A stretch of DNA of 60,782 bases, counting the filler, from Platydemus manokwari (Eukaryota), in the NCBI GenBank assembly GCA_037951405.1. It is 5 parts of 5 records of this genome, joined end to end, with 100 filler letters (N's around TTAATTAATTAA, not from the genome) between each part and the next. Parts side by side here need not be neighbours in the genome. Positions count along the whole stretch, not along the records: positions 1 to 14,853 come from JBBMOY011382536.1; positions 14,954 to 25,986 come from JBBMOY010958862.1; positions 26,087 to 38,288 come from JBBMOY010258893.1; 2 more parts are not named here. The stretch is one strand, 5' to 3'. The notes below the pieces were generated by a model. The model had not been told where the DNA came from. It did not search any database and was given only the letters and a program-made list of their open reading frames with translations. Within the stretch, counting starts at the first letter, position 1. Every line of letters starts with the position of its first letter. This document shows positions 6,228 to 34,075 of this stretch, piece by piece. The position numbers and the translations under genes were made by a program.

Positions 6228-6228
6228 A

Positions 6229-6276
<48 letters not shown>
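6228..6276. repeat. (AAT)n microsatellite
   Basis: Perfect AAT run. Confidence 0.95.
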
Positions 6277-7098
6277 TGAAAAAGATTAAAATTTTAAATA
6301 AATTAACGATTGATGTATCACCATATCCAAAATTATTTTTAATTTTGCACACATTTATATTGTGAAAATTAAACTATCGAAATTATAAAATATTAATTTT
6401 TTTATATATTTTATTCACATTATTCCTAATTTGCCAATGTATTCAGAATTTATTACGGTAATATCACCGGAGATACCACAAAGAACTCTCAAGTTAATAA
6501 CAGAATTATCCAAATCAAATATTAAAACTATCATGATGTATGAAAAATAATTTGAAAATAATTAAACCTCTTAGATTAATATAATCAATATTTTGGATTA
6601 CTTCCAACTTAAAAATGTTCTAATGATAGATGTTCTGATTATAATAATCTAAGCGTTCATTCTTTTTTATCAATATAATTTTTAATGATTTTTAAGTAAT
6701 ATTTACAAAACTACTGGAAAACTTGTTGGTACAAAAAATTACTGAAATAAAATAAACAATAACAATTATTTATTTAATAAACATTGGATTTTATGATAGG
6801 GTTGAAAGTTAAGATTCCAAAAACTTAACTTGTCAGAATAAGATCTTTAGAATTTCCGAAGATTGTATTAAACAAAATATTGGTTTATCGGTTAGATGTT
6901 AAATTTTTGGTTCGCAGTGGCTTCAGTAACCGGTATTGAGACCAAATTACTGGAAATTTATTTAGTTTCACTAAAGGTCTTGCTCACAGAAGAATAACTG
7001 ATACTGCGCCTTTTCTAAATGAGATTTAAATGTTTAGCTAAGAGTTTATCTGTTATCGAAAACGATAATAATTACGATTATAGTATCCTTTAATCAAA

Positions 7099-7719
7099 TG
7101 CGGTATGCCGAGTATCGTGACTATTGGATACCGGTTAATAAATGAGTTAATTAAACTTTGCTATTGAGTTATGAACGACACAAGGTTATTTAAATAAAAT
7201 ATTGTAGTAATAAAATTTATTTCCGAAACAAAACGAAACAATTATTAGTTATAAACAAAAAGATTGTGCAAAATGGCTTGTAATTTGACTCCGCAATTAA
7301 CCCGCGAATTCGTAAGACGGACGAAGCAGAGATTATTTGGATAGAGAAATTTAGTTATCGATAATTTTTTCGGCCAATCTCCTTTGTTACCCACTTTTAT
7401 ATAGTATTTTCTCCTTGTGGGCATACGTTGTAGTTGATTATTAATTTTGCGAAAATTTTTTCATTTTTTGGATTTTATTTAACGTTAGCATGGTGATCCA
7501 TTAAATCACCATGGTGATTAATTTAATAAATATTATTATTATGATTGTTACCACGGTGACTTATAATTTCACCATGGCGATGGGTAATGAATTTTATTAT
7601 TATATTTTTTCGGTGATGTGGGCAGTACGTGGGCGATTAATTAATTTGCATTTATTATTATATTTTGTTTATATTTTATTTTATTATATTTTTGGTTCCG
7701 AACAATAAGCATGTCCTCA
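7099..7719 (-). mobile_element. LTR (TGAGG...CCGCA) of the glycoprotein-bearing element
   Basis: Preceded on - strand by polypurine tract AAAAAGGGAAGAAGCA (7720-7735); TG..CA ends; TATATAAAA ~7395-7403; AATAAA ~7217-7222; U3 part homologous to 31650-31830. Confidence 0.65.
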
Positions 7720-7741
7720 TGCTTCTTCCCTTTTTGAGAAC

Positions 7742-8670
7742 TCATTTGAACTTCCGGATCTCTTTCTTTTTCTCTATCTTATCTGGCTGACTGTTTATGT
7801 TTATCCATAATTGTCCTGGGATAAACTCGTTGGCATTTGGATTCAGATTATAATTTTTGACGATGTCCTGACGAATATATTCTTCAGCGTCCTGCCACAG
7901 TTGTTCGAATTCTTTCTCATTCTCTTCTTTTCTCATTTGTTCGTCGACTATGGACTCTTACCATAATTGCTCAAGAAATTGCTCATTCTCCAAAGTGAGC
8001 TCATAATCGTCGCATTCCATAATTTGTTCATGATAAAACTCGTTTTCTGGCTGCTGAATTTTAATGTTATGATTAATTACCTGCACTTTCTCTTCTCGCT
8101 CATTGTCCTTAAGCATTTTGAACTCTGATATTATTTTTCCAGAATTTGGTGAGTTTATTTTCAAATAATTGCTCCTCCGCAGACTTGAGCTTCCAAGTTT
8201 GATTTCTTCTGATTATTGAATTTTCAGTTAAAAGCTCTTTATCCACCCATTCAAATACATTGGTGGCCTTGGTTATCATCTCTTGCTCTTCTTGAATCTT
8301 TTTCTTCCATCTAGATTCTTCATTGTCATCTTTTCTGTCTTTCCAGTTTGCTTCTATATTTTGATATATGCTGATTATTGCATCTATTTCATCACATCGA
8401 TTGCCATATTGTGGCATCCTCTTTCAAATGATTGCTGCATGAATTTCTTTCAGATTTTTGCTTAAGAAATGTCGGCTTTCCTTTATTTCTTCTTCTACTG
8501 TTATTGCACCTCTCAAATCTCTTTCTCCGAGTGCTTCCTCAAGATATATCGATATTGCTTTTCTTTTCATATCGTATCCGTCTAGGATTTTCCCTCTGGC
8601 GATTTCTATTACTTTCTTGCTTGCCTCCTCCGCATCCATTTTTCCTCTGATTACTGCTTCTGACGTTTAA
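7742..8670 (-). pseudogene. Fragmented unknown ORF(s) of retroelement 3' cargo (charged/coiled-coil)
   Basis: Consecutive - strand ORF fragments 8424-8639, 8109-8417, 7958-8164, 7742-7936; the last ends just before the PPT. Confidence 0.45.
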
Positions 8671-8673
8671 TTT

Positions 8674-9365
8674 TTATTCTCTTGATAGTGTTTGATTTCT
8701 GATCTTGGGCAACAAATCTGATTGAAAATATCTTCCCTTTTGAAATTTTTGAGAGCTTTCCAGACTGGGTACTCTATTGTTAAAGTCGATGGCATATTTC
8801 ACATCGATGAAAATGGTTAATTCTCTTTCCTCTTGTTGGCTCATTGGAATAATATTTCTTATAAAGGACATTTAATTTTTTGGTTGCATGAACGGCAAAA
8901 TCCTGGAGATTAAATATTTGCGCCTCGTGAAATTCTACTGGATCCAACTGGTTGGGTTCTACTAGTTCAATCATTAGAATGTACGGAATACTCTTAGATT
9001 TTATCCTTATCTGGGAGAATTCATTTTGAAAATTTGGTTTTTTCTGGGGTGTCAGATAAATTGAAATTGATGAGTGTAACTCCAATTCAATTCTCTCTTC
9101 GGGAAATTCTACGATCTCCAATTCTTTCGGGACATATTGTAATATCGGTAAGATGCCTTTGAGCTTGAACCTTCCTTGTTCTTGTTAGTGAAGTATTATC
9201 GCTGTTCTTAATTGTTACGCTGTTTTATTTATTATTATTTGGAATATAGGTCATATCTGCGAATATTCTTCTTCCGATACCAAAGGGTGCTTTTTTAACC
9301 GCCGAAAGAATGGCAGTATAAAATCTTCTTGGGAAATATTGAACTATGCTTGTTACGGGTTCCAT
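8674..9365 (-). pseudogene. Fragmented unknown ORF of retroelement cargo
   Basis: ATG at ~9365 (MEPVTSIVQYFPRRF) plus overlapping fragments 8780-9121 and 8674-8871; GC-richer than flanks. Confidence 0.4.
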
Positions 9366-9759
9366 TATTTCTACTAAGGTGTTAAAAATTATACTAAAAT
9401 AAATAAAGGGGTATCTTACTTCTACCGTTGCTGATCGAGAATTTTTGTTCAGTAATTTATGACTATTATCAACTGGGGTTTTGTTTATATGAATTTAGCG
9501 CTCGGTTTTGATTGGCTAATTTTGTATGGACAACTTTCTTAGTGGGTAGAATTTTTGAGATAATTTTCTTATTGGTCAATTTATTTTTTCCCAATATTTT
9601 TTTATTAGGAGTTTTATGAGAATTCAATTTACATTATTTCTTATTTTATTTTTACAAAGTCTAAATACCATATTCATGCTCCGAATGAAAAAAATTATTT
9701 TTATAATCATATCCTAACCATTTGACAACGCTCGTACGCCGGCAAAATTGCCGAGAGTG

Positions 9760-10200
9760 ATCCTTAAACCTATTAGCCCTTCCAACACTCTGGCCAATAA
9801 CTATCGATCCTCGTAGTAGACTATTAACTTCTTCCTTTACTAGCAGTTCATCTTTCTTTCCATGAACTGTTTGATTCATAGGGCCATGTTGAGGCGGGTT
9901 CTGTAGTCTATTATTCTTGCCCTTGGGGCTATCATGTTGGAGTATATCAATTTACCTTGGTAATTCAGGTTGTTTATCGCTATCGGGACAAGCTCATTGG
10001 CGAATTGCGGTTGTGCTAATCCCATTCTTCTTATTATCCCCTTCGGGTCATATTCATCTTTAAGAAAGACCCGTGGTTCTGTATTTGGAGACAGTCGTTG
10101 TCCAGCTCTCCAAATTTTTTCCTTCGACTGCCTAGGCACCATGCTCAGTTTGGTTGATTCTTCTTTTTTTCCTTCGTTAAATTTTAATTTTTAACTCATT
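9760..10200 (-). pseudogene. Fragmented unknown ORF of retroelement cargo
   Basis: ORF 9876-10142 with frameshifted continuation; bounded by AT-rich spacers. Confidence 0.4.
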
Positions 10201-10583
10201 TTTGAAATTTTGAAAATCCAATCTTAATTGAACCAATGAATTTTCCATTGTCATTAAATATTGACTGTTTCATATTTGTGCTATTTTGTTTTTTTTATTA
10301 ATTCTTTGTTCACCTGTATTGTCTCTATTTAGGGGCTAGCTCTGGGTTAGATTTGGGTTAGATCTCAACATATCTCCGCCCTCTTAGGTTTTTTCGTCCT
10401 GAAAAATAGGCAAAAAGATTAGATATAGACAGTTATTTACACAGTGGAAAAGGTTATAATGCTACATAAAAATGTTAACATAAATATGTCTATAGTACAA
10501 ATGGCTGTAATAAAAATGGTGTCTACAACGCCGTATAATGTCAGTAAGGTGGTGGCTACAACACCGGATAAATGTCAGTATTG

Positions 10584-11490
10584 TCATTTACTACTTCTTT
10601 CCTCATGGGAAATTCGTCGATTCTCGTTTCGGTGTAACTTCTCATCCCATTGTCCAATGAGATCCTCTTCCTTGACTTGATCTTCTCCTTCATTATGGAA
10701 ATGCCGTATATAATTTCGAGGGGTAACCTTTGGTCGGAGTATTGGTTCCCCAAGGTGATCTTGGACGATGATTGCCTGAACTACTTTATTGGATTCCTTG
10801 GCCCGTGAGTGGTTGAGGATTCCTACAAAACGGGCTGCCATAAATCTCATTCGATCAGGATGATCCGCTAGTTGTCCTCTGACGAACGTCAAATAGTGTT
10901 TGATTCTTGGTGGAATTCCTGTTTTGAATGTAATTTCTGAGGGTAAAAGTCCCTCTTCATTTTTGTCTCGACCGAATTACATGACGAGAGTGGTAGGTAT
11001 TTTGGCAACTTCTAGCATAATACGATTTATCCTTTTTTCATACATCAGAATTTCGGGGGCTGTGCTTGATTCGAGATAGATTGGTTCGTCGAGACCTGGG
11101 ATAAAGACGAGGATAGATTGGTTTGTAGTGGTTATCCATGTAGGCGGTTATTGATCTTCTTGAGAACTTCCGGGTATGATTTTGGTAAGAAGCCTTCGAA
11201 TTGGTGCTTCAACGTATTCGGCTGTGGATACTATTTCTATTTGTTGGGTATGAGTACATGAGTGTGGTACCTTCGACATCGGCAGTTTTGTCGTCGCATT
11301 TCGATCACCATTTCATGCCATTGCATTGGCCCTTATTGAAACTACTGTTTGACTGGATATAATTTGGAGGTTGGTTGGTGTTCCAAGACTAACTGGATAT
11401 TGCAAAATGGGGTCGTCCGGTTATGGTCCTTTGCTGAATGTAATGAATTAGTAATCATAGCTGAATAATACGAATAGTATGTGCAGCCAT
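10584..11490 (-). pseudogene. Decayed ~300-aa unknown ORF directly downstream of the glycoprotein
   Basis: Reading frame continues upstream of ORF 10584-10892 through a few stops (...ILVFIPGLDEPIYLESSTAPEILMYEKRINRIMLEVAKIP...). Confidence 0.45.
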
Positions 11491-11566
11491 TGATTAGATA
11501 TAATATTACGATATAGATATAATTAGTTATATTGATTTTAGTTCGACTCTTTTGATTCTGTAATTA

Positions 11567-13350
11567 TCATAAGGTGGTACTGGTAAAGTACGTTGGGTGT
11601 GGCAAGTAATTTCTATATACGGGTGGCTTATGCCGTCCTAGCAAGAAAGCGCTTATGGGAAATAAGATGGAGGACACGAATGCTGTTGCTACAACTGCGA
11701 TTATGGCTCTTGACGAATATGGGTCTGAAGGTTCGTTCGATAGTTCCCTTATTCCGAGTCCTTGCTTTCCTGATTCTCGATCGTACTCGTAGTGGTGTCC
11801 ACACGGTGTTCCATTGCTTCTCCTCGTTGTCGAGCGAGGTATGGCATATTGATCTTTTTCGGTAGAGGTTTTATTCGAAGTACTTCTCTCCATGAGTTCT
11901 TCAGGCTGATCAAATTGATTTTGTTAGTGCTTTGTAGGGTGGTACATTTTCTCTGGGGTGTGATTTCCTTTTGGATTTCTATACTGTGCGGCAGTATACA
12001 GGTTTTTACATACTGGTGTGGTTCGCGACCAATTGCGGTAGATTCGTCGGATTATCTCGGTGATTTCTCGATCACGTAGTTGAGGAAACATTAAGTCTCT
12101 TCGTGCGTCTTCGATATCTTTAAGGTTGTATAGCTCCTCCTTATTTTCAAGTGAATTAATCGGACCCAATCTGACCCGTTCTTCTATTATGCTAAGGTTT
12201 AATGTCTGCACGAGTAGTCGGGATAATCCTCGCAACGTTAATGTTACCCAAGCGTTCTTGATTTTGTATAATGGGAAGAAGAGTGGTGTGCACGTTCTTT
12301 TGTAGGTTTAGCGGTTGGCAACATGTATCTAGTCTTCCCTTGATAGATGACTTTTGGCTTGTTTGTGCATTCGTGACTTGGGCCATCATGACTTCTATCT
12401 CAGTGCATCGAAACTCATACCAAGCTTCTTCATTACTTTGGCATACTGTGTCTTTTCCATGATAAGGGGCGTGATTAAATCTGGATTCGCTATTGCAAAG
12501 TCTAACCGGTTTCGTAAGATTTCCCTGTCTCATTGGTTATCAGTGCTTCCTGGTAGACTTCGAGTAACTGAATGGAGGTCGTGGTAGAGGAAGTCAACTT
12601 TATTCATGTAGATGGCTATTTTGATGTCATTCTTGTGAAGGATTTGAGCATTTTCCAGTCTTTCCCTGCTATAGTACACTCCTTAGTAATTGGTGCTATA
12701 GAGTATATTAACACATTTCATGATTGGTGACTTGATTACTACTAGGATTGCTTCGGATGACTTGTTGGACATTAGTATCGTAGGTACTGCTCGTTCTCTG
12801 TCATTGGAGTGTTCTGTTGCTCCTCCCAACTGTTTGTTTATTACCTAGGTGCCCGTTAGTCTTTCGTAAACTAATTTGGTACCGGTTATAGCAATAAAGG
12901 GTCCACTCTTGAGTAATGTTAGTCCACAGTAGTCCGCTTCAGGAGGTCGGTAGCGAAGTACTCCTTTATTTACTGTGCATTTTCGATTTTTTAGGTGGCA
13001 TTTCGGATACTGTTTCATTAACCCGGTTTTAGCATCGAATGTTGCTTCGAAGGAATGTAGTTCTACCAGGCAATCTTCGATGGTGACTACCTAGGGTGAG
13101 AATATTTCATCCCTGAATTTGGTTCTTTCGGTGCATTTTCCAATTTGAGCTCTCTTTCCTCCTCTAATTACCGTTTTTTTGGTTATCATGTTTGGTTCGA
13201 TAGTTAGGCTTAGTTCGGGATCGATACTGAATGCATTTCTGCAATCAGTTGACGCTATGTTCAACATTGGTGGGATCAACTTGGCTTCTAGTACCGCTGT
13301 TCGGTTATGATATCCACAATAATACGCGGACGTTGGCTTGAGCTGGAACT
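11567..13350 (-). pseudogene. Decayed viral envelope glycoprotein, chuvirus-G / gB-like class III fusogen (env-like)
   Basis: Frameshifted fragments: AYYCGYHNRT; Cys-rich IEDCLVE..KCHLKNRKC; LYSTNY..NDIKIAIYMNKVDFLY; EAWYEFRCTEIEV..CCQPL; LYNLKDIEDARRDLMFPQLR; C-terminal hydrophobic AIIAVVATAFVSSILFPISAFLLG. The motif order matches chuvirus-type G as I recall it. Confidence 0.65.
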
Positions 13351-13719
13351 AAAATAGATTAATTGTCATAAAATAACAATATCGTAATCAATTGTGGTAA
13401 TTGGTAAGATGGTTAGTGGTTTTTTGGTTTTGCGATTGGCTTTTATAATTGGTTTTGAGAACTTCGGAACTGATGTGGGTTCAGCAGAATTTATTTACTG
13501 ACAATATCAAATCTAGCAAATGAGAGTTCATTGAAACTGATCTATTCAAAATTTACACTAGTTAATAATAAGTACTTTATATAATAATTAATTATAATAT
13601 AATTATTGTTGTGACAATTTTAAATTGAATTAAAATTTTAAAGATTTAATTTTGTATAAAATTTAGTTGTGTATAAATTATTTAATATAAAATCAAATTA
13701 ATTAGTTTAAATTTTATTT

Positions 13720-13780
13720 ATGCTCTCGTGACTTCTAATTTCGTCTTCGATGCGTGTTTTATAAAATAGTAGCGGCTTAC
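13720..13780 (-). repeat. Dispersed repeat; other copies at ~15981-16032 and ~16250-16303 (+)
   Basis: GTAAGCCGCTACTATTTTATAAAACACGCATCGAAGACGAA (rc) matches GTAAGTCGCTACTATATTATTAAACACGCATCGAAAACGAA at 16250. Confidence 0.7.
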
Positions 13781-14065
13781 AATTATTTTTAATTAATTAT
13801 CAAATTGAATCACGATCATCCATCATACTCGTAGCTCAATCTGTAATCCATTATGAATTGGATTTCTTCAAGTTTTCATACTCCCACGGGATTTGTCCTG
13901 ACGACAATAATGCATCAAAATTTATTACCTATCTGCTCTGTAAAATCCCATCGAGTTCTGCGTCGTTTTTTAGTCACAATATAGTAATCCTGGGTTTTGG
14001 AATTTTTGATGGATTAGTATTTAAATTAGAATATAAACGGATGGCTATCTTCTAGATTTCTTTTA

Positions 14066-14122
14066 TTCCTATTTGTTCCTGATCCGAGGAACGGATGAGG
14101 CCCACGGAAGTCCGAAATAGAA
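14066..14122 (+). ncRNA. Degenerate hammerhead-ribozyme-like motif 1
   Basis: TTCCTAT / hairpin GTTCCT-gatccg-AGGAAC / C(G)GATGA / stem II GG..CC / GAAA TAG; outer pairing ATGGCTA(14041)/TAGCCGT; core has a U->G change. Confidence 0.5.
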
Positions 14123-14176
14123 CACTAGCCGTATCATAAAACCACAATCATCATAATTGAAGGCTTCGAGAGATCT

Positions 14177-14230
14177 TCCTATATCTCTCAACCGAGATAC
14201 TGATGATGCTTAAGGAAAGCCGAAATAGGA
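14177..14230 (+). ncRNA. Hammerhead-ribozyme-like motif 2 (type III-like)
   Basis: TCCTA-TA, stem I TCTC/GAGA, CTGATGA (14200-14206), stem II GCTT-aagga-AAGC, GAAA, TAGGA complementary to TCCTA; mismatch at the base of stem II. Confidence 0.6.
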
Positions 14231-14853
14231 CTAATTTTCAACAAAAGGTAGTTTATTTGTATATTTTTATAATTTGACCACTAACAATACTATTTTTAAA
14301 ATTACTTTATTTAGTAACTTATTTTATTATTCTTTTATAGTTAAAAATATTCTCCTTATCTATTATTAAGAATGCAATTTAAAAATACTGCGACAACTCA
14401 CAGAAATGTATATAATATTTTTGTTAGTTGTTTGTATTTCAGAAAGATTTAACTCATAAAAGTAGAATAATAATAATACTTAATTTGTACCTGATTTCGA
14501 AGGTGTGGTACTATAAACCATAAAAATAATTTAAATAAATAAATGAGGATAAATGAAAATATATAATTATTAAATCAAATATTGTACAAATAATAACATC
14601 AATTTACAGATATTAATTAAAATGACAATTGAATAAACAATAATTATTCGATAACAAATAATTAGGCATTTAGTAAACTTTTAATTAGAGGGGATCAAAT
14701 CTTTATTGCTCAAATGTTGAGTGACATCAGGATTGCAATGGACGAGTTGAGAGTTGGGAAGCTGATAGACAAAATCATTATAGGGTTTTTTGAGTTTTAA
14801 AATAAATTTTGCACAATTTAAGATAATTATTTACATGAATAAGAGAATTGTTT

Positions 14854-14953
14854 NNNNNNNNNNNNNNNNNNNNNNNNNNNNNNNNNNNNNNNNNNNNTTA
14901 ATTAATTAANNNNNNNNNNNNNNNNNNNNNNNNNNNNNNNNNNNNNNNNNNNN
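14854..14953. other. Assembly gap with artificial TTAATTAATTAA spacer (also 25987-26086, 38289-38388, 50982-51081)
   Basis: Identical N44-TTAATTAATTAA-N44 blocks. Confidence 0.95.
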
Positions 14954-17199
14954 TATATATATATGTGTGTGTGTGTGCGTGCGTGTTTGAGTGTGTCGCT
15001 TGTCTGGATATATTTAAGCCCCAAAACGAAGATGCGAATGTTTATTTTTAGTCTTCGAATAACTATAATTATTATATAGATAGATAGATAATATATAATT
15101 ATAATAGGAACAATCAACATAATATTATATATATTCACATTATTAACCAAAAACTACTTATCTAATGTTGGCTGTCATAAAACTGTCAATTTCATTATGG
15201 AGAGGAGGAAATTGAATTTCACTTGATGAAAATGAAGGGCAACGTTGAGAAAATTGTGGAAAGGGGAACTGATAATTGATCAAAGTGGTTTCATTGAGTG
15301 GTGTCCTCATTAATTTTAGTTTCAATTAGATTGTCGAATAGTTAGAATGTCATCACAAATAGATAATTTCAATACAAAAAAAAATACTCCAATCAGTAAT
15401 GCATCGAATTCCCATTGTGATTGTTTGATGGTTCGCTGTGAAGTAATTAGCCTGTTATTCTATTCTGCACATTTTACGCTATTGATCAATTAATGATTTC
15501 AGTGATTTTGTTTTGACAAATCATCTTCAAATTATCCATTGTTAACTTTCTTTCATATTTTTGTCTTGTAATTAATTGATTTATTATTTTTTATTAATTG
15601 GTTAGGGTAAAATTATGAATTTTGTTTGACAACAAGTCGACATTTTATTAATGAATTCTTAAGATCTATATTTAAACAGTTATTGTGAATCTAAATGAAT
15701 GTGAGTTTGAGTCCACTGGTGAGAGAATTATTGATTGGTGGATTGGTAAGTCTATTTTATACTGACATGTAGAAAGAATTGGAATAGAAAATGATTCTAT
15801 GAACTATTATGGCTTTACATTACCAATAACAATATATTAATATAACAATATATTATTACATTATATAATTAAGGGTGAACATGTTTTGAATATTTTTATT
15901 AAAAATCAATATATAATGTGTGAATGGGTTACAAAATAAAGTTGAGTAGATTGAGTAAAATCGTTATATTAATTATTACTGTAACCCACTAATATTTTTT
16001 AAACACCCATTAAAACGAACTGAAAGTCACGACACCCTTTCTTTATCATCTTTGATTTTCTTTGTAATCCTAATTGATATATTTATCTACTCTGCATAGA
16101 AATCTATAATTCTTCTCTGCATCTTCTTTACATCTTCTTTACTTCTTCGGTATATATTCTCCATACAGTCTCAACATCTTCATTCTTCGTTTCCATAATT
16201 TTCCGTCATTGATCTTCTCAAAATCGAATCGAGATGCGTAGTCGCCATGTAAGTCGCTACTATATTATTAAACACGCATCGAAAACGAACTGAAAAAACA
16301 CGAATTAATATAATTTTATAATAAAAATTTAAATCTTCAACAATTTCATTCAATTTAAAATTCTCGCAATTACAAATCGAGTAAAAAAATCTTGTAGAAA
16401 AATTATTTTAATCGATTGGAAAAATGAGTGAATCATTATAATGAAAGTTATGATATTGGAGAATTGAAATTAATGATATAATCCGAACACAATGATAATA
16501 AAATTAAAGAAATCAGGAAAACAATTAATAAAATCACTTGGATAAAACTAATGTGATTTATAAACAGTAAAAATATTATTTCCGAAATAATAAATTTATT
16601 TATTTGATGGAAAAATTATTGATATTTAAGATATTTGAAGTTATTAATAGAAAGTTTCAATTATGGGTGTTTATTAGCATTATAATTAGCAAAACAGTAG
16701 CTGCCAATAGGAATTTACATTGTGTTCAATTAAGGAAATACATTGTAGAAGTATTTTAAAGAAAATGTATATAAAAGTAATGGTCAAGCGAGTCACTGTC
16801 ACTTTATGAGTAGCCCAACAAGAAATAAAAATAAAATATTTCTTTTGGCCTATTGTATTGAGCACAGCCAGTGGTGTTGTATTTTTAAGCACTGTAGTGG
16901 TATTTACAATAATTGTTTTGTATTGTAGAATAAGCTACTGAAGTAAAGATAATAGTTAACTGGAAGAAGATTCCGTTGCTGATAGGTTAAAACCGGTATC
17001 AAATTTTAAGTTATTCTTGATAACGAACTTTTAATATGAATTTATATCGCGGTTCTAGCCGACTTACAATAAAAATTAAATTACTAACTTAAGGTTTTGA
17101 TTTAGCAGGGGTTAAACAAAATAATAATAACCAGTTCGTCACATTCGAGATTCTTGATCAAAACTAGAAAAATTAGTTCTGAATTCAGCCTAGGTATGT

Positions 17200-18600
17200 G
17201 AAATAATTGCTTAAGGTATTATTTATAAGAGAAAAAGAAGTACAAACTTCAGGAAAGTTATCGACTATTGGAAATATAAATGGGATGTGGATACCAAGCT
17301 ATTCAGAGATTAAAAAAAATTATTATGTTCAGCGAAATTTTGAAAATACAAAAGTTTCACAACTCACAGAACATTTGATAAAAACGGAAGAGAAAATCTT
17401 GAACTTAAGGAACATTACGCGGACACGAAACTAATAACGGTAGAAGAGTAACCATAAAAAAGACGAGAACAGTCTTCATTTATCAGTGAAATAAATAGTA
17501 GAAAACTATACAATGATAGATATGGTTTTCAGGAGAAGAAAGACGAATGATAGTGACGCGGACATTGTTTCTGGTGTAGTGAAGTAGGTCATTTTAGAGA
17601 TCACTGTCCGATAAGAAACGAATGTCATATATGTGGACATGGAGGTAATGTTTCCCGAGAATGTAACATGTTTAGAGACTGCAATCAATCATCAGAAAGC
17701 CGAGAGAGATAATCAAAAAATATAAGAATGATGATAATCATCAAAAAGTACGGATAACCGAGATGATGTATTGCAAGAAAGACGAAAATGAATTAAGAAT
17801 AATACTTCAAATAATTTTACCAGTGTCGTCAATGACATGATGAGTTTATGCCGTGATATCAGAAAAATGATAGATCTTTATAATGAGTGAGAATATTCAT
17901 GAAATTGGGAACAACTATGCGAGAAGCACTCATTCTGAATCTTCCTCGAGAAAACAGAACACTAAGATCAAAGAAAACGGATCGGAAAAAGCAATGGCAT
18001 GTGGATCGCGGTTGTTAACGAGTAACAAAAAGGTCTACTGTGTGACGAGGAAAGATGTTTTTAACATTGATGGGTTTGTTATCCCTTTCAGAGAAAATCT
18101 GCATGGACAGAAATTTGTTGTACGCATAAAGAAAAAAGCCTCAACTATCTTAAAAGAAATAAAAAATCAATTAGATGAAAGGACCATGTTTGAGGTATTC
18201 CTTAACTCTTGGATTTATCGTTTTGCAAAACAAAATACCATTTTGACAGTAAGCGGATTGAAGTTCAGTTCATAGTAAAAGAATTTGCTAAATTCCGGAT
18301 TCCTGAATAGCTTAGCTCGTCTTATCAGCACTAATCAAATAGATTAACAGAGCAAGTCATTTGTACGGTTAGAGTTTTGGTAGTCTAGTCGCTAAAGAGT
18401 GAAACTAACATTAAGAAATGAATTTTCCATCAGCACTACTCGGTAATATTCTACCAAATTCTCTTCTTTTTAAGTCTCTTGTAGACAGAAGATAAATCTC
18501 AAATTTGAAAGTGACTACAAAGATGTACCGAAAGACATCGTGAGTAAAATTGGTGCCTTACAAGATGTATACAAGGGATACCGATAGAAGAGGGCATAAA
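17200..18600 (+). mobile_element. Highly decayed Ty3/gypsy pol remnant (protease-like and integrase core)
   Basis: DSDADIVS (D-S-G-A-D-like); WIYRFAKQNTILTVSGLKFSS and SSYQH*SNRLTEQVICTV resemble the rve core. Confidence 0.55.
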
Positions 18601-21600: not shown

Positions 21601-22449
21601 GAAATAGCATTGGGTCAATTTCCATATAAACTACTCGTATATATTATTGTCCTACATATCAACTAGTCCACCATTTATAATATTAATTATGAACATTTTT
21701 CGTCTTCAAAATACTTCCTATGTTTCTTACATTTAGATATTATGAATTATTTTCAAGATGAATTCGGATTTCATTGTAACTGTCGATCACGCTGATAGGC
21801 GTGCTTTTCGAGCTTGCTTCGGAAAACTCAAAAGTTTTTTATTCAAAAAATGTTCGTCATGTCAACCAAATGATTCTCGATAACCAAAATCTTTTTCACT
21901 TCAAAAGTTCCAAACCTGCAGGTTAATAAAGGAAAATAGAAAGTACTTGGAAATGTTTTAGGCCTCTTAATAGATAAGAAAATGTTTTTGCATTTCGAGA
22001 AAGGAAACATTTGAAGATTCGTTGATTTACTATAAATTTTAGACATGAGAAAATTCACCCAAACCAATCAGTGGCCAGTTTCGTGTGTGTTTAACTAAAT
22101 TAATAAAATTTTATTTTGAATTTCTCAGCCCGAAAATTCAGATTGAAAATCTCGGTTTAGTTAAAATTTCCAATTACAACACTTAATGCTACACAAAGAA
22201 GCCAAACCAAAAAGTCACTTTATCAAAAAAAAACTGTGAAATGATGAGTTAATGATGAGCTGAGAAAAAATGAAAAAATCAATACTATAATTTGTTTTAA
22301 TCTGAAATGATTTTCTCAAAGCGGAAACTGGAGTCTATACATCGATCAATAAAAGCTATTACTTTACCAATTTAGAGTAATACAAAATGTTTTTGAAGTA
22401 TAATGATAAAGGAGCGAAGCAAACAGATTACCATTCACAAAAATTTAAA

Positions 22450-24800
22450 AATTTATCCTCACGAGAAGTTATTTCAAATAAGAAGTAAGAAATTGGTTGG
22501 TTAAATTCAGCTATAAGTTTATCCCAATCATCGAGGATATTTTCAGACATCACAGTCACTACCAACTCTAAAATTGTCCCAATTATGTTGGTAGAATGAT
22601 GTAAGCTCTTACGTAATGCCCTATTTGATAACCACTGTTCTTACCAGTTCACCTTCAAACGCCTATCGGATCACTTTAATTATTTGTGGTCTCCAAATTG
22701 GTAAATGGCCTATGAAACGCGATTCATTTTTATATAAAACAGAACTCAAACTTACTGAACCGACCAATAAATACTTAAATTTGGATTGAAAATCTAGTCT
22801 TGAATGATTCTTTAGTTTCACTAGGGATACTTTGTGATTAGCACAGATCTGACATTTTCAAACTCTATGTTCAATATTTCTGCTCATATTCGATTGGTGG
22901 TAGAGATTCTGATTGTAAATAAGTTGCTTATTACGGCCTATATGCTATAATTCTTCGTGAAGCTATTGAGTTAACTTTTGTACACGAGACACTGGAATGA
23001 CTACGCTTCTTCTCATTAATCATAGTATGGGAATAATTTCCTTACCAGATTATATCTCTCAAAATTTTACTAGTAATCACTCATATTGCCTTAGAACCCA
23101 CATTACTCGTCTGATCTCGAAACAACTTACCTATTGAGTCTACACCCACATCATCTTGATAATTTTTTCCAAGTTCATTGTTATAAGTAGTTCAAAGGTC
23201 AAGTCTTTGTCCTAAATGCTTTATCACTCTGGTATTTTGACAAGTATTGAGAATATATTGCTTCTTATCGTCATTGCAAACATTCCCTATTAACATGGTT
23301 AGATCTACGATTTAGCCTTTTTCAAGTAAAGTCTTGGTAATCCATTCATGATACTTATTTTTTCAAAGCAAATATTTATTGAAATACATTGTGAATACGG
23401 AAATCGATAAGAGGAGCTTTCCGGTTATGAAGTAATCCTTTATTTGATTGTTCAAGTTTCATGATGACCATGAAATTAATATTTAAAGATTGTTATCAAC
23501 GATCTGACATCGCCAATTGATCCAAGATTTCCATATGTATCTGAAATCATTTCTCTGTTTTGATCTGGATACACCGACATCAAAGATGTCAATAGAGTAT
23601 CTTTAAAATCTTTTTACTATCTATCGCTTTCATTTGACTTCTCAATCTTCTTATCAAACCCAAACAATAATGAATATAGTGGTACAGTTATCATTGTATA
23701 ATTCCTAATAAATCTCCTAGAATAAAAAAGACACATAAACTACCGCAGTTGCGTCATACAAACCGGTATTACAGCATTTATGATTTGCATGCATTCTGAT
23801 GTAATCGTATAGCGAAAAAATTTCAAAAGCATGGTGTCAGATAAGCATTTGTAGTGTTCATTCCCGCCAGTAATTCAATTTATTTAAAAATCTTGAAAAG
23901 ATTTGCGTCACGGTAATTTTCCAAGTTCTATTTTATCAAAATATCGTCTAGATAAACCAGAACTTTGTTGTAAATAAATTATAAATTATTGGGTTTATTT
24001 AAATATTGGATCCATTAAGCTCTGGAATGCAGTTGGATTTGTCCGCATGCCAAAAGGCAATTTCGTCGAAACAATATTTTCCGATTATGGTGTTAATAGA
24101 GGCTATTAATTTGTGTTTTAAAATTATGGCTACACGTATCGAATCTAGCATAGTTTCAATATCGAGTGAGAGAAATATCAATTTCTCTGACAAATCACAA
24201 CATTTGTGGAGATTCAAGCACATCCTTATTGAACCATCTTTTTAAGAACGAACATTAAAAGGTATTTTCATTTCTATTACAGATATTACAGTTCTTACAG
24301 ATTCGATTTCCAGATAATTGCCTATTAATTCTCCAATTTCCTTTTCTAAATTCGTCGGTGTGCCTTTTGCGTATCTGGTAAATCAGTCCTTCTTTTGCCA
24401 CAATTGTAAATTTTATTTAACTTTATTAATCCGATATGAAACGCTGGTGCTACAAAAATCGAGGTATTTTTCCTATAGTTATTCTTATTGAACCATCATT
24501 ATCTCTGGCAATGCATTTCATTTCTAAATCAATTCTGTCTTTGTCATCAAGAATTTTAGCAATTTCTAATATATCATCAATCATTTTTATTTCGGTCAAA
24601 AGATTCAAAATATTCTCAAATCTAGGTGGAATACTTTTAGATTTTAATCGATTCACAAGACTTATAACCTTATCAGGTCTAATTACAGCTATTACTTTTG
24701 TCAATTTTAGATTTAGATTTTTTTTTATTAATAGCCCTTCGATACTTTTCGAGATATCTTCACTCATAATTGTGATGAATGGTCCAGAGTGCTGCAGGAA
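22450..24800 (-). mobile_element. Decayed Ty3/gypsy gag-pol remnant
   Basis: KKDGSIRMCL (~24240) and frameshifted KLPFGMRTNPTAFQSLMD (~24060-24005) RT motifs; degenerate knuckle ~24400; RNase H/integrase-like traces downstream. Confidence 0.7.
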
Positions 24801-26719
24801 TTAAATCAATCTCTTATTAAATGTTATCCAACTCCATTTCTTTTAATCTACCCTTTGAAACATATTCGAACTTTTCACTAACATTTCTTCTTTCCTCACT
24901 TAAGTATCACTTCTGCTTCTCTCACTTACTATTACTATTAATTCAGACCAACCGACAAGATAGCTACAGCGTTTGTGACCGCATTATTTTAATCATCATC
25001 GTTTATGATTTCAGATTGGACATCGTATTTATCCCGAAAACAAAATATTCTTATCTGTTTGTTGCGGAATATTCTAGTTTGAAACCACTATCTAAAAATG
25101 TCTTCGTGAAAAATAAAACAGTAGCGCAAGGTGAACACTCGTTTCTTTCGTGTTCCATTTTTACACAGCAAAACCATGCATCTAGCCAAAGATATCGATC
25201 TCATATCGTGGGTCTACATCATAAAATCTTGTTGCAACCATATGTACTTATATTTGATGATTGCAGTCTATGAACCCAAACACAAATTCTATCGATTAAC
25301 AAGGATGAGTTTTCCTTGAAAAATTTTTTTATAATTTGTGGTTATCTGTGGTTTTTGAGGCTTCTCAGGGTGTCAAGGTTTTGGTGCGCTCAACTTGTAA
25401 GTAAGAACATACTCTAATTTCCTAACTCTAAGTTTAACACTACGATATTTTTTTATCCGATATATCATACCTAATTAATGCTTAGTCATGAGTCTTGTCA
25501 GAGTTTTTATTGTGCCGAAAAAGCTCTAAATCATCATCAGTTATTGGAGCGTTATCTTTACAAAAAATACATCCGCCGAAGGCATTTATGTCCTTCAAAT
25601 ATATATGAGATAAAATTTAGCTCCATCTGATTAAATATAGCGAAAGCATGAGCTTCATGAGTAGCTCCATCGAAAAGTTTTGCTTTGGGATTCAGTATTT
25701 GAAGATCTTTTCAAGCAATGCCGAAATATCTCATCCAATAAGCAGTGTTTTAAAAAATGATTTGTTAAGAATTACTAAAATTTTTAAAATCACATCAATT
25801 AAGCAATCGTAATACGAGCGCTTGATTATGAAAGTGGTATAAGTCATTTCAACATTTCAAAACCAAATTTCCATTTAAAAATGGTAACAAATTTCACAAT
25901 CATATGAAGTGCTGATTTACCGGCGCTAATTAATTGTCAAAATATTTCATTCTATAATACACAAATATTTTTTAATTCTTTAACATNNNNNNNNNNNNNN
26001 NNNNNNNNNNNNNNNNNNNNNNNNNNNNNNTTAATTAATTAANNNNNNNNNNNNNNNNNNNNNNNNNNNNNNNNNNNNNNNNNNNNTGTAGGGATAATAA
26101 TCAATTATTATGTTTTGCAAGGAGTTTATTGATTTGAGACTAATTGATATGTGGTATCTATTGAATGAAGAATCGATTTTTATTAAATGATAGATATTTA
26201 AATGACAAATATTGAACCCTCCAGTAATAGAAAGAAAAAAGAAACAAATTATTATATAAATAAAATATAAACAAAAATTAGAGATTTCATATTATCGATT
26301 TAATCATAAACAGAAACACAATATTTAGACGTGGAAGAGGAATACATAGAAGCATTAAATATAATTATTGATGGGTTCATTTTTGTGTTTTATTACGATA
26401 ATTTATTTTGTGTTAATGGGTCTCTTGAGAGGCTTCAATAATTCGTATCATGGTGAATTATCCGTTATATAAAAACATCGAATATCCACCCTATCTAATT
26501 TATATAATAACTGATTATCACCAAAACGATTTGCAGTTTCATTGACAAGAAATAATTCGCGAATAATCAATTAATCAATTAATCCGTACTTGACAAAAGA
26601 TTATTAATAATAACCGTACTGCAATGATCAACAAGACTGTCTTAATGCTTTTTTTGTGAAATAAGAAAACACTAGAACAGTAAAACAACAAAAATATATC
26701 AGTCAAATTACATAACGCG

Positions 26720-27177
26720 TCACGTAAGTGAGTGACTGTGAAAATCTAAAGTGGATTGGTGAAGACCAATAATACAATGCAATGAAATAAGAATTACTAA
26801 AAATATTATGATTGGGAAAATATAATTTAAATCTTACTTACTAGAACCAATTTATGGCCTGTGATAGAAATTCACCGATTTGGTTTTTTAATCAATATCT
26901 TTGTTGAATTAATTCTAATAACTGGCTCGGCTATTATTTCGTGTGATGTGCCATGTGTTTTATAGTCTATGTGGTGGTGGCTTTTATACTTTTTTCATAG
27001 ATGCCATCTATTAGTTCGTTACTTGGTTATTATAATTTATTCTTTTCGTCTTCACCGGTAGTATCTTATTTCACATCTCTGTTAATCAATAACTTTATTT
27101 TAGTATTTGTTAATTGTTCTCTTTATTATTTCTTATTAAATTTTATTATTAAATTATTATTATTATATTAGTATAAG

Positions 27178-27208
<31 letters not shown>

Positions 27209-27260
27209 TTCATTGCACTTTTACATTGTGATTACTTTGTTTCCATTTATTAACTTTCTC
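26720..27260 (-). mobile_element. Possible solo LTR related to the 899-1678 LTR; includes a (TTA)n tract
   Basis: Minus-strand GTATAAAAG followed by CACCACCAC...AATAGCCGA, the same order as after the TATA in LTR 899-1678; boundaries approximate. Confidence 0.3.
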
Positions 27261-29158
27261 CTTACATTTCAATATTAAAGACGTGAATATTCATTTAATA
27301 CAATATAATACGATATTAAAACATGATATCGAAGATTCACGCGACGGAACCAGTTATGAAAAGTTTTCTTTAAAGTAAAGTTAAGCAGATTATTTTGATT
27401 ATTGAGAATGATTTTGTGGATGGTTTTTGATTACTGAACTAAGAGGATGATTTAGAGGTTAATTTCTAAGATATTAAGATAATGTATGAAGACTTTTTCA
27501 TAAGGCTTAAGAAGTAGGTTTGGTTGATCGTTCAACACCAATAGTATACTAACGGCAGCTTTGATATATTTCTTTATACCGTCGAATTTCCTGTAAAGAA
27601 TTTTTCATTTCTAGAAAAACTTATTAATTTCTAGCCAACTTTAAGGATATATAACCAATTATCATTTTTAAACCATTTTTCCCTTATTGATAATATGATT
27701 TTTTATTGCTTTGTAGTTGGTTTTTTTAGTCTTTTAGTTTTTATAGTTTTTAAAAATAAAATTCGTCTCTATATTTGTCATCAATTCTATCTCTATCAAA
27801 TTTTTATTTATCTAAAAGCGGTCAACTAATTGATATCTAACATCAATTCTATTGTTTATTATTATTAATATATCAACACGCTTCTACAATTATGAAAGTT
27901 TATTCCGAGATCACTTTACAAAGGTCGGGTTATTTAAGGCTAATGAATAATAATTATTACATATATGATAATATTATTAATAATAATTATATTAATAATT
28001 AAATAATATTAAATTTGTGATAATAATAAATTAAAATTAATGAAATAAAATGGTGATGAATCTGATAACAATCAATACGGCATCTGAGATTTATCTGTAA
28101 CCAGTAGAAATTTTATCACAAGTTAGAATTTGCTGAATTTGATGTGTTAATTTATCTTTATGTACTTTTGTCAACTGTAATTGTAAACATATTTGTTTAT
28201 TTATTGTTTAAGGCTCACCATTCGGTCAAACCGACATTGCCTGTCCTCACACAGGTACATCTCCTGCCAGGCATTTGACGATGGAATTTTTCGAAATGTG
28301 TACAGAATTAATCACTGCTTTAGCCCGATGATGCGCGCCTATTAAATGAACCTGTGAAAATTTTCAACAATCAAATCCAATAACAAATTGAATATAAGTG
28401 CTTCTTTGATATATTTTCATGAAACAATAACACATCTATAAATATAAGATAGCTCCCAGACTCAGAAAATTAAATCATATTTGTAATAATATGTTGATAC
28501 TAATTTTTATCTACATCGATTTATCCAGTAAAATTATTCAATTATGTTGTTTATTAAATGATATTTAATGCATCGTTGGATTTTGTTTTATTTATTGACA
28601 ATCAATAATTTTCATTTTTGGAATTATTGAATTAACCACTTGCTCCCCTTGTCGTCATAAATGTTAAAAATTCGATAAATGATAAACTGCTAAAAGGGTT
28701 ATTCGTCACAATTTTCACTTATCAAATGAATGTTGCGACAAAGTAGTTATGATTGGTCTTCAAAATTAATTTTTCATTAATTTTCGAATCAAATCGTTGT
28801 ATTTTTAGATAATATTGTGAAGATGTTTTAGTTGTTTGTTATTGGTTGTAAAATATTGTTCAAGTATTCGTTAAACTAGTTGTCGCGATGAATTTGAATT
28901 ATTGGTTTGTTGATCAAATTATTGGTTAGATTTAATTGGTTGCTTATTGATCTATAGGTGATCAATACCGATTGAGTTATCGAGCATTCTCATTTGGTAG
29001 TGAATCAATTATTAACTTTGGGCTCAATTTTCTGCATGGTAGTTGGGCTGATCATGAATGAAAATAGGTTAAGAAAATTCTTAAGTTGGCCATTTGATTA
29101 AATCAATTATACCGATAATTTAATAATTTTAAATTAGATCATGGATAGAAATAGTTAA

Positions 29159-29419
29159 CACATTGACGGACAGTAGGAACAGATGAAGTTCGAAATTTAA
29201 CAATTAAGCTGCAAGTCGTGTATGGAAAACAAAAGTCAACCGAAAGAATCGTTTCCAAAACATGACACTAGTCTTCTATTTGTACTCCAGTAAATGCACA
29301 TTTGTGCCGCTATAGCCGCATTGTTCAAAAAAGACCGTTTCGTTTTAGACGGTTATTGCCGTTCTGCCACATTGTGAAGTTCTCTTTGACGGTTATAGAC
29401 GCAAGTGTCCGTCAACGTG
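29159..29419. mobile_element. piggyBac-type MITE
   Basis: 14-bp TIR CACATTGACGGACA / TGTCCGTCAACGTG (1 mismatch), flanked by TTAA (left) and TTCA (right). Confidence 0.75.
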
Positions 29420-31628
29420 TTCATTAAAAAATTAAATCCATTTTAAAGATGATTAAAATAATTTCAATCCTATATACTTAATTCATAAATATATAAAAAT
29501 TAACAGAACGTTATTTACATTTACATTACAAATATTGATTATTTAATAGTTAGACACTTAACGGAAAATTAGTGGTGTTAATGATACTTGGTTTTTGTTT
29601 TACTTGTATATTGGGTCTAGAGGACTTTTATTAAGGCGTATGGAGTGTTGGTAAAATACTGAGGGGCGGAAATCGTCGACGAGGACAATTGGAATGGAAT
29701 AGTACACAAGGAAACAGACCCGAAAGAGCAGGACCAAAGTGAAATTCAAGAGATCAAGTTGGAACCAACAATTTGTGAGGAAGTAATAAGCACGCCAAAA
29801 TGGTGGGAGCTCGTCAAAAGAGTAGGGATCGATGAGGAGTATTACAATGAATGTGTGTAAAAACCAATACTCGATTTACATGTCTTTTTTCTTTTATAAA
29901 TGCATATCGGAAGTCCTTTCATTACTTATCAATGTGTATATAAGTCCAATAATAATTTTTGGAGAATATCATAAAAATTTTAGCAAGTGGACTAATTCTA
30001 TAAATCCAAAATATTACCATGGCAATTAATTATAGAATTTGGAAAATTAATTCCACGAAATTTATGAAAATTTACAGAAATTATAAAAATTAATAAAATA
30101 AAATTCTTGATATGATGAAACGGAAAATAAAACTAATTTTTAAATCAAAATGGAAAAATAAATGTTTTAAATTACTCTTCTAGAATTTCGACACCTAAGA
30201 TAGTATAAATATCCCATAAAAGTTGAAAATTTCGATCATAAATTTGTGATGCAAATCTATGTATAGAATTCAACATCTGTGTTTTTATACAGGATATCTG
30301 AAAATCTCAAACCATTTTCAGAAAAAGAATCTTCGAATGTTGTGAAGTCTATGTTTATAATGAAATATAAAATTTGCCTCTCCCAACCTTAAATTGCGTG
30401 TGCTGAAATAATTTTGCAGATTTGAATAATTAATTTGGTTTGGTTTGTTTGATTATTTGTTTATTTAAATGCAAAATCATTTAGTTTACAATGGAAATTT
30501 TGATAAACATGTTTGTAATTGTTGTTTTGATTTCAATAGAGAATTATTGAATGTGCATTTTATCTTTTTAATTGATTTGAAATTTGATTGATTTTCGTGA
30601 GGGTTAATTTGAATTTAAATAATTGTCAATAGCTGCTATTTTAATTAGTGCATACATTTTTCATCTCTAACAATAATTATTTTACTATTATTTTTTAAAT
30701 TATTTTTAATTTTCGTGTACTAAATTTTATATTGCTTTTATTTTTCGTCACCTTTTTAATTTTCCAATTTTACACAACTTTTAGCTAGAAGGCTTGGGTC
30801 ATTATAAAATAAATAACTAGCACATAAAAACCAGGATTACTTAAAATAAAAAATAAATAACTTATTTGAAAATCAGTTAAATATCACAATTAATCGAAAT
30901 TAGGTTAGAAATTAGTTAAGAATAGTGATATTTGATTGAGCTACTTTGGATTGAAATAATTGGAATGATCGGATTTTGAAATCGGAATTGTAATATGTTA
31001 TATGTGATGTATTTTTTGGTGGATTGTCAACTGTCAGTATAAATAAGATAATAAAAATCACGAGAGCGCACTTGCATTAAAACTAAAAGCTCGCAATAAA
31101 CAAAAGCAAAAAAAACAAAAAGAACACAAATTGATTCGCTCTCAATTGATAAGCAGACACGGAATTAGATATGTATAATTACAATATCGCAATAATTGAT
31201 TAACGAATAAATTTATTATTGTTATCACTGTGGTAATGTCCACAAAGTGATTAATCAATACTTCGAATCTTTCTAAAATATTTTGTTCCAATGACCTTGT
31301 ATTTTATTAGATTTGTATTTCACTTGACTTCATTAGAAATAATAACATTTAAAGAAGAACAAAATGAACATGACCAATGTCCAAAGCATAGTGCAAGATT
31401 TTTTATTAATATAACGAGAGAAATGTCAGATTCTTAAAAGTAAGAGGATACGCGTTTTTCAAATAGTGCTGTCAGATTTCAAACGATAATTTATCACAGA
31501 AAGTTGAATGGTCTTCCGTTTTGACATTGTTAATTTAACAAAAACGTTCATATAACAATTTTTTTTAGTTATCTACATAATGGGTTTAGTTTTCCTTCAC
31601 CAATCGGCTGTTATTATTGCTCTCGGCT

Positions 31629-32354
31629 TGTCAGCCTCAACGTACTGTAGAGAACCAAAATATAAATAAATATAAAAATGTAGTTGTCCACGTACTCACA
31701 CGTCACCGAAAAATACAATAATAATAAAAATTATAATAAAATTCATGATTCATCAACTTGGTGAATTAATACGTCACCATAGTAACAATAATGGTAATAA
31801 TATTTAAAATACACATCACCATGGTGAGTTGCTACAAAATTGTTCTTCATTGATTCGCCGAAATTGTGATTCGCTACGGGAATTATTCATCCGATTCAAC
31901 GAAAAAACTGTTCATCAGATTCAACGTCTCGTGCTTCGAATCAATCGTTAAAACTCTCAACTATATTCGTTATTTGGATTCAACGTATCGTTCTACAGGC
32001 GTTTCGGATACATTCAAATCCTCAATAAATTTGATCACTCGCATCATCGGATAAGCTTGTTACTCAATCCTGAAATGCAATCGGTAATTATTTCAATCAA
32101 TTATATGAGTATCGTACAAAGTCGTAAGAATTTGTACTGATATTCATTCATAAAATTATATAGCTATACAAAGGCGAAAGCATTCAGTGCGCTGTAAAGC
32201 CACAAGGATTTGCAGACGCCACCTTAATTAATAAGCTAAAATCACATCTTCTTTAGTTTATCGTCCGAAGTAAGGCGGTAATTAGTTCCTTACGTCTATT
32301 TGTTTTAAACTCTTCAGGATACAACACTGCTCTGTGTCAAATTGTTGCATGACA
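31629..32354 (+). mobile_element. Probable 5' LTR (TGTCA...TGACA) of the gag-bearing element
   Basis: Inverted TGTCA/TGACA ends; 31650-31830 homologous to rc of 7490-7700, including CCACGTACT..TCACCGAAAAA and TCACCATGGTGA. Confidence 0.55.
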
Positions 32355-32798
32355 CATTTGTTAATTTTTATTATAATAAACGTAGTATTAAGATTTTGTT
32401 ATCATTCATATCATTATTATATTTAACAGTACTTGAATAATTACACGCAACGTATTTATTGATTAAAGTCGGATTATTGGTGGAATCATCCGCTTCTAAT
32501 CATTACTTAATAGTGCACAGATAATTCATCGAGTTCTGTTAGTTGAATTATCTCTTAGAATCACTCACTAGATACTACTTAGCACAGGCTAGTAGGATTT
32601 CATCAAATTTGATGAGCCCGACGTGATCATAATCATTCGGGTTAGAACATAGAGCTTGCTGAAGCTATCATCAATTAGGTATCACAAGGCTTTTTAAGCT
32701 TTACACATTAATTAATTGCCTTAGGGCTACAATATAACTATCACAATATAACTATAATCACTAATAACTATAACAATATAACTATCACTCATTCTCAA

Positions 32799-33920: not shown

Positions 33921-34075
33921 CACGGAAAACACTCCTCAACCGAACTTAAATCGGTTACAGCAACTTGAATTAGAATTTTTAGAGGAAGAAAGTCGAGTCT
34001 ATAGACTCCCGTAAAGGGGAGGCCCTCGGCATAAACCCGAAACCGAAAAAGCAGAAAGACACACGTAAATACATC

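Follow-up and report, generated by a model that had tools for sequence, protein, structure and literature searches.

Burro (GYPSM1) of Schmidtea mediterranea and other Dugesiidae is described in the accessible part of PMC6431247 as a planarian retroelement with gag, a ubiquitin/SUMO-like domain, a BCL-2 domain and an in-frame mononegavirus-like env that are followed by the protease and reverse transcriptase (RT) of pol, with decayed fragments in Dugesia japonica as well. For flatworm errantiviruses, the available portion of PMC13524379 reports the order GAG-ENV-POL, and the excerpt of PMC5408684 describes a DEDDy exonuclease as third open reading frame (ORF3) of the bdelloid rotifer Juno/Vesta long terminal repeat (LTR) elements and of Terminons; the excerpts of PMC11410931 and PMC8532177 hold nothing on element structure. 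Here, we analyze a stretch of 60,782 nucleotides from Platydemus manokwari (assembly GCA_037951405.1; henceforth the window) that consists of five contigs joined by N linkers. Two of these, separate contigs with the N linkers as their sole join, carry retroelement sequences that we call piece A (positions 1-14853) and piece B (26087-38288).

With good probability, both pieces are decayed remnants of Burro-like, envelope-carrying Ty3/gypsy elements, likely of two sister families. Piece B is a 5' remnant (LTR, primer-binding site, gag to linker) that stops before the envelope glycoprotein (G). Piece A represents a 3' end without pol, in which the G ectodomain is followed by a membrane tail, nuclease-like ORFs and an LTR. 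Each contig bears one LTR only (3' in A, 5' in B). An earlier note on this DNA had rightly taken them for relatives rather than one insertion.

Long terminal repeats and their shared block

The 5' LTR of piece B (31646-32605, plus strand) runs from TG to CA and belongs to a highly repeated family. Its borders follow from read depth, for which contigs of the sequencing run were aligned to the window (so that summed depth is no copy number): depth steps up at 31646 and down after 32605, and 28 contigs have loose ends behind 32605 and 24 behind 32606. A 4-base spacer separates it from a tRNA-Trp-like primer-binding site (PBS; 32610-32627, plus strand) that has 2/12 mismatches to the Trp_CCA end listed in the accessible part of the PMC13524379 supplement, and the depth of run contigs indicates that internal copies of B read on past this site. 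Such a TG...CA LTR followed by a tRNA primer site and the gag described below are both features of Ty3/gypsy elements. The 3' LTR of piece A (6794-7704, minus strand) starts with TG at 7704, a position at which the contig that bears A's last ORF in a diverged copy likewise breaks; its CA end is placed at ca. 6794 by likeness to the ATCA end of B, and repeat depth extends to at least 6805 and drops before 6644. Summed depth reaches 4757 on LTR B and 461 on LTR A compared to ca. 13 on unique DNA, and LTR B is clearly the more repeated of the two. Piece A itself was detected in a single sequencing run, probably its source, and in no RNA run, a result that has no bearing on expression.

A homologous unique 3' (U3) region in both LTRs had been proposed in the earlier note, and this proposal stands. 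Positions 7670-7503 (minus strand) align locally with 31653-31830 at 72% identity over 183 columns, and self-BLAST of the window returns the pair with an E-value of 2.6e-20. The alignment score of 124 is far above the maxima of dinucleotide shuffles (41 in 300 shuffles and 45 in a focused set of 1000) and of 572 real windows from the rest of the sequence (42), and it is significant against AT-matched controls as well, given that 15- and 20-nt block shuffles that keep AT patches reach at most 47 and 57. The motifs quoted in that note are present, and both blocks indeed lie at equal offset from their TG start (7704 minus; 31646 plus). Their likeness is limited to ca. 190 of ca. 910-960 LTR bases, the remaining LTR scoring 22 where shuffles average 25. 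Membership in one transposable element family is commonly drawn at 80% identity over the LTR. Pieces A and B, with 72% over ca. 190 bases and the rest unaligned, stay below this value, and because their LTRs do not align outside the block, we regard them as probable sister families and not, as the earlier note had thought possible, as two halves of one family.

Coding content of the two pieces

Piece B encodes a gag (32916-33930, plus strand) with capsid and four CCHC knuckles that is broken by a frameshift and stops. It is followed by a Burro-type linker with a helical and a ubiquitin-like domain (34713-35330, plus strand) recognized by hhalign against a five-sequence profile, where the helical domain scores 24.9 (shuffle maximum 15.5) and the ubiquitin-like domain 38.6 (shuffle maximum 16.0; probability 90.6%, E = 1.3e-6); B thus has a ubiquitin/SUMO-like domain where Burro has one between gag and env. 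Further downstream lie an AT hook (35625-35650, plus strand) and a helical stretch at the position of the Bcl-2-like region of relatives (35800-36120, plus strand). The AT hook of the "AT-hook ORF" in the earlier note is present, but the ORF is probably no separate gene and rather a frameshifted continuation of the gag polyprotein. Both the ORF pieces and the GC-rich element DNA of B end at 36120, where GC content falls from 0.44 to 0.28. A word-based search found no gag homologs, and a protein-atlas search with 35185-36117 gave no usable match. Past the ORF end, 36512-37079 contains cysteine-rich frames without match in Pfam or relatives.

The G of piece A is a class III (gB/Monjiviricetes-type) fusion glycoprotein ectodomain (12023-13348, minus strand) that matches PF24664 Monjiviricetes_fusion with 44.9 bits (cut-off 27 bits; E = 5.6e-12) and is truncated at both ends. 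Profiles from relatives place the loss at the signal and ca. 75 N-terminal residues on one side and before the stem and transmembrane (TM) segment on the other, where the match ends at 12023. G and an in-frame tail share one frame with 9 stops and no frameshift (13348-11570, minus strand). This tail (11570-12022, minus strand) comprises a Ser/Thr-rich stretch, one TM helix (peak 2.24), a short tail and a double stop, and does not match G's own stem and TM segment; its position and shape suggest that it is likely the natural end of the polyprotein. No profile match to protease, RT or integrase was obtained in either piece, and no pol was found in A or B with Pfam in 18 six-frame read-throughs, a scan that also missed the nucleases described below. 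For A's G, there was no sequence match in the PDB and a word-based search returned no homologs, but a HMMER search did find them.

The DNA upstream of A's G is AT-rich and repeated and carries a short solo LTR of another family at very high copy (13604-13781, plus strand), with joints 13604-13782 in 8 contigs, TGG-starting loose ends behind 13781 and a second copy near 16248-16369. Summed depth on the ca. 178 bases of this solo LTR exceeds 15,000 in a bin, and its other copies are followed by TGG primer-site-like sequence. The adjoining 13782-14250 is repeated (depth ca. 1100) with a decayed coding look, has no Pfam match and occurs elsewhere without the solo LTR.

Relatives and gene order

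The full HMMER search with A's G returned 42 relatives, and a scan of JGI metagenomes confirmed at least three loci (L001, L002 and L003) among the 594 pattern matches listed; no related loci were found in viral contigs or genome contigs. Because tblastx sum E-values against relatives include spurious linked pieces, we used z scores of shuffle tests in their place. Of the 13 longest G relatives, which were scanned for domains, 10 have a protease right after G and 4 of the 13 RT as well. Three others terminate within or at G, and pol does not precede G in any of them; P0044 (4844 aa), L001 and L003 agree on G followed by pol. The order of the earlier note, i.e., LTR, gag, AT hook, possibly pol, G and accessory ORFs, is wrong, judged by these relatives. 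With pol following G in them, A is most likely a pol-deleted copy and not a native 3' end in which accessory ORFs directly succeed G.

Locus L001 encodes ubiquitin-like and Bcl-2-like domains, G, proteases, RT, RNase H, integrase, a TM tail and a stop, 335 bases past which an ORF of 496 aa begins. Locus L002 encodes gag, CCHC knuckles, a ubiquitin-like domain, an AT hook and a Bcl-2-like region directly followed by G. Its first four features match B in the same order, its counterpart of B's linker is recognized as ubiquitin by Pfam (E = 0.0047), and its G matches that of A at z 49.5. Judged by these matches, B-type gag and A-type G occur in one element, with the LTRs of L002 out of view. The polyproteins P0005 and P0018 also combine both types, and the earlier note was right to point to a giant planarian gypsy lineage. 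Of seven B pieces compared to L002, three match clearly (both gag comparisons with L002 ORF1 at z 12.3 and 19.8; another at 7.2) and two show weak matches, one out of register at z 2.9 and one at 3.2 for the helical stretch at the Bcl-2-like position.

A tree of G made with a quick method from 22 rows groups A with P0013 and P0015 (98) inside a clade with an SH-aLRT support of 95. This clade holds all six relatives with a ubiquitin-like domain detected by profile, while the long relatives P0011, P0027, P0037 and L003, which are without this domain, fall outside. Both pieces are thus likely, as far as sequence comparison can tell, to belong to a Burro-like GAG-ENV-POL errantivirus lineage.

The relatives have some peculiarities of their own. 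In L002, a single stop (3058-3060) stands in the same frame between the gag-to-Bcl-2 ORF and G and could be a read-through signal or a mutation. The polyproteins of L001, P0002, P0006 and P0044 have several protease copies and end in extra signal-peptide and TM segments resembling a type I membrane protein, with further such segments between G and RT in L001. Although P0006 is a retroelement polyprotein of planarian type, its NCBI entry assigns it to a Flavobacteriaceae metagenome-assembled genome, which probably reflects bin contamination.

Reconstruction and alternative explanations

The full plan of these elements would begin with an LTR and a tRNA-Trp primer site, continue with a single polyprotein that comprises gag, a ubiquitin-like domain, an AT hook, a Bcl-2-like domain, G, a protease, RT, RNase H, an integrase and a terminal membrane protein, and close with accessory nuclease ORFs and an LTR. 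In A, an internal deletion most likely removed pol and the stem of G, leaving G in frame with the last membrane segment, and the 5' part was probably lost to other repeats. Several observations weigh against this reconstruction. Gag and G were not seen together with an LTR of A or B type on any contig, nor did any contig seen hold both LTRs; two of the seven B pieces (33983 and 34398) are without any match in L002; and B's likeness to the Bcl-2-like domain is not significant in the profile test. Alignment of A's tail with the polyprotein C-termini of relatives is not significant either (z 2.3). The earlier note had placed a polypurine tract between the accessory ORFs and the LTR, and a purine-rich candidate exists (7722-7735, minus strand) but is not adjacent, ending ca. 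17 bases short of the TG. In the G tree, A is a long branch placed by a quick method, giving support and not proof, its nearest relatives P0013 and P0015 are fragments without upstream sequence, and five of the six relatives with a ubiquitin-like domain were training sequences of the profile.

The shared frame of G and tail, without any frameshift over their junction, could also mean that A belongs to a family that is non-autonomous, lacks pol and spread by the pol of a helper, with B possibly as its front and a content of gag, chimeric G with new stalk and TM segment, and accessory ORFs. B's ORF stopping before G and the lack of pol in either piece agree with this, yet a junction is in frame by chance in 1/3 of cases, A's G is without its N-terminus too, and GC content is host-like in the DNA that follows the stop of B and in that which precedes the G of A. 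Moreover, depth is that of single-copy DNA in the tail (15.7 at 11580-11908) and 15.3 in the contig across the G-tail junction, so that we think such a family unlikely.

Slightly less probable still is that A and B stem from distant lineages within the group, with nothing but the U3 block in common because their LTRs recombined or underwent template switching. Only ca. 190 of ca. 950 LTR bases align, and depth along B comes in modules, with 1200-1470 on the block and 86-400 on the adjoining U3, as if several families shared the block. However, B's linker and A's G independently indicate the same clade, the LTRs are of similar length with the block at equal offset from TG, and selective conservation of an enhancer yields the same pattern.

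A native order of gag, pol, G and accessory ORFs, with pol beyond the contig end of A, is hardly credible: GAG-POL-ENV is the common errantivirus order in the accessible text of PMC13524379 and A's G is followed by a TM segment and stop like a separate env, but the same text gives GAG-ENV-POL for flatworm elements, none of the 13 scanned relatives has pol ahead of G, A's G is without its own stem and TM segment, and the L001 nuclease ORF comes after both G and pol.

A putative enhancer in the U3 region

In remnants of two sister families, as we prefer to see A and B, the block was probably kept while other parts of the LTRs diverged. The conserved block of A (7485-7700, minus strand) holds four TCACCATGGTGA-like palindromes and an X-box-like site (7547-7560), that of B (31650-31830, plus strand) three palindromes and an X-box-like site (31773-31786). 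Within 2 mismatches, TCACCATGGTGA has 10 matches in the window, 7 of which are inside the shared block (1.5 expected), and the pattern GTNRCC-NN-RGYAAC has 2, both inside the block (0.04 expected). This pattern corresponds to the RFX X-box as given in the available part of bioRxiv 10.1101/2022.11.11.515474.

The likeliest explanation for the survival of the block would be that it is a DNA enhancer made up of X-box-like, palindromic sites, and its putative reader would probably be an RFX factor of ciliated cells or of germ cells. This view is weakened by the X-box spacer having been fixed after the sequence was seen, by the homology of the two sites, which are not independent, and by 1/100 shuffles also reaching 2 X-box matches. 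A shared RNA hairpin was rejected as the reason for the block, with folding z scores of -2.8 and -0.26 and no fold common to both copies, and there was no match in Rfam. The palindrome is absent from the three loci checked (L001, L002 and L003), and the end of L001 does not match the U3 of A or B. If the block acts as proposed, it predicts which planarian cell types produce an enveloped element.

Accessory ORFs of piece A

The 496-aa ORF of L001 scores 26.1 bits for RNase_T in Pfam (cut-off 24), has ISG20L2 (E = 3.4e-8) and ISG20 (E = 3.5e-6) as its best PDB matches and has its catalytic positions filled, with E at the third; an AlphaFold model made without alignment was unusable (pLDDT 31.7). 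The 3' ORFs of A match this nuclease in the equivalent place, as found by phmmer with the L001 protein as query. Copy 3 (8112-8880, minus strand) is frameshifted with stops (independent E-value 5e-16 at 8768-8328; z 11-19), copy 2 (9660-10190, minus strand) is frameshifted with the first acidic motif absent (5e-5 at 10064-9711), and copy 1 (10587-11300, minus strand; 1 at 10904-10644; z 3.4-3.9) is an accessory ORF at the position of L001's first one. The L001 ORF and, through it, copies 3 and 2 can therefore be called homologs of DEDDh exonucleases, with copy 1 as a weak case. Searched alone against the PDB, copy 2 has ISG20L2 as top match (E = 0.099) and copies 1 and 3 have nothing relevant, and a protein-atlas search with 10587-10976 gave no usable match. 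The ORF at 9494-9228 was rejected as a fourth nuclease after the phmmer search with the L001 protein.

Beside the weakness of copy 1, it speaks against an array of nucleases that the three copies match one another at z ≤3.3. From this low mutual similarity, we infer that the duplications in A are old. All three copies have an incomplete set of catalytic acidic residues and histidine, and copies 1 and 2 are without both acidic residues of the first motif. Since stops in G imply ca. 10-14% decay, at which all 4/4 acidic residues would be lost with a chance of 0.003-0.007, copies 1 and 2 were likely dead before decay if their alignments hold, and probably served as catalytically dead RNA binders. 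The last accessory ORF (7745-8212, minus strand) is acidic, has one stop and contains a PAM2 (PABP-binding) motif at ca. 7815-7860 (PF07145, E = 9.3e-5; 22.3 bits, cut-off 20). It may once have been joined to copy 3.

With the nuclease intact in one relative and a mostly dead array in A's family, we tentatively suggest, as a possibility rather than an expectation, that giant planarian errantiviruses carry an ISG20-like 3'-5' exoribonuclease of their own behind pol and, with an array of dead paralogs and a PAM2 protein, an RNA-control kit under an RFX-driven LTR. The accessory DEDDh proteins themselves probably act on element or host RNA. If the suggestion is true, the kit would be expressed in ciliated or germ cells and could serve to deadenylate RNA, to take part in small-RNA defence or to maintain an RNA genome of great length, for which ExoN of nidoviruses offers a comparison. 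The presence of an ISG20-like exonuclease next to the envelope gene of a giant retroelement could offer a testable handle on the upkeep of RNA genomes of 20-30 kb or on how these elements face Piwi-interacting RNA (piRNA) defence, and the intact ORF of L001 allows a direct assay. Our literature search, which did not cover the Repbase notes or Grohme et al. 2018, where such ORFs may be described, yielded no account of ISG20-like nucleases, PAM2 or RFX sites in these elements.

Other features of the window

The second contig of the window contains decayed gypsy pol fragments unlinked to A and B, with RT-RNase H at 23360-24360 (minus strand) and RNase H at 17874-18275 (plus strand). On another contig, the innexin exon at 38391-38783 has 7 matches, of which innexin7 of Dugesia japonica is the best with 71% identity; the host is therefore likely a triclad planarian other than that species. 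A decayed non-LTR retrotransposon at 42695-44500 (minus strand) encodes an RT (PF00078, E = 2.7e-7) followed by what we take, by eye, for a restriction-like endonuclease of R2/NeSL type. A tandem array at 48222-49126 has 3.1 copies of a 298-base unit with 86% matches and is flanked by exons of what is presumably a NIPP1/FHA-domain-like host gene.

Comparison with known systems

The pairing of this kind of gag with this kind of G has already been described for flatworms, in another order than the earlier note had guessed, and A and B mostly add a decayed member to the Burro-like group and correct the proposed gene order. As far as PMC6431247 is accessible, the likeness to Burro/GYPSM1 extends to the planarian host, a gag with several CCHC knuckles, the ubiquitin/SUMO-like domain and accessory ORFs and, in the relatives, to the Bcl-2-like region and a mononegavirus-like fusion glycoprotein in frame before the protease. 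Burro-like elements are further marked by giant size (over 25-30 kb) and their RT clade; neither A nor B is a full element or has an RT. Unlike in Burro, the LTRs are ca. 0.9-1 kb long, and the BIR, MATH, ankyrin and dUTPase domains were not seen in the A and B remnants. Conversely, the ISG20-like nuclease ORFs, PAM2 motif and X-box-like U3 of A and B have no counterpart in the available text of PMC6431247 on Burro.

The Platyhelminthes C1a errantiviruses with HSV/gB-type ENV (Smed_errantivirus_1-6 in the accessible part of PMC13524379) share the G family and its cysteine pattern, and Smed_errantivirus_4 appears most like A's G, a likeness judged by eye and not computed. Their GAG-ENV-POL order is that of the relatives of A's G, but unlike them, the copies in A and B are broken. 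In the part available, the supplement of that paper gives neither PBS nor LTR in its six rows on Schmidtea, and the words "exonuclease", "accessory" and "Burro" are absent from the accessible main text.

The potentially important part of these elements is their 3' cargo, i.e., accessory ORFs for which we found no description. A parallel is found in the invertebrate retroelements Juno/Vesta and Terminons, where, according to the excerpt of PMC5408684, pol is likewise followed by an ORF for a 3'-5' exonuclease. That nuclease is an RNase D-like DEDDy enzyme, present singly and in place of env, whereas the one described here is ISG20/ISG20L2-like, of DEDDh type, located beside env and repeated two or three times.

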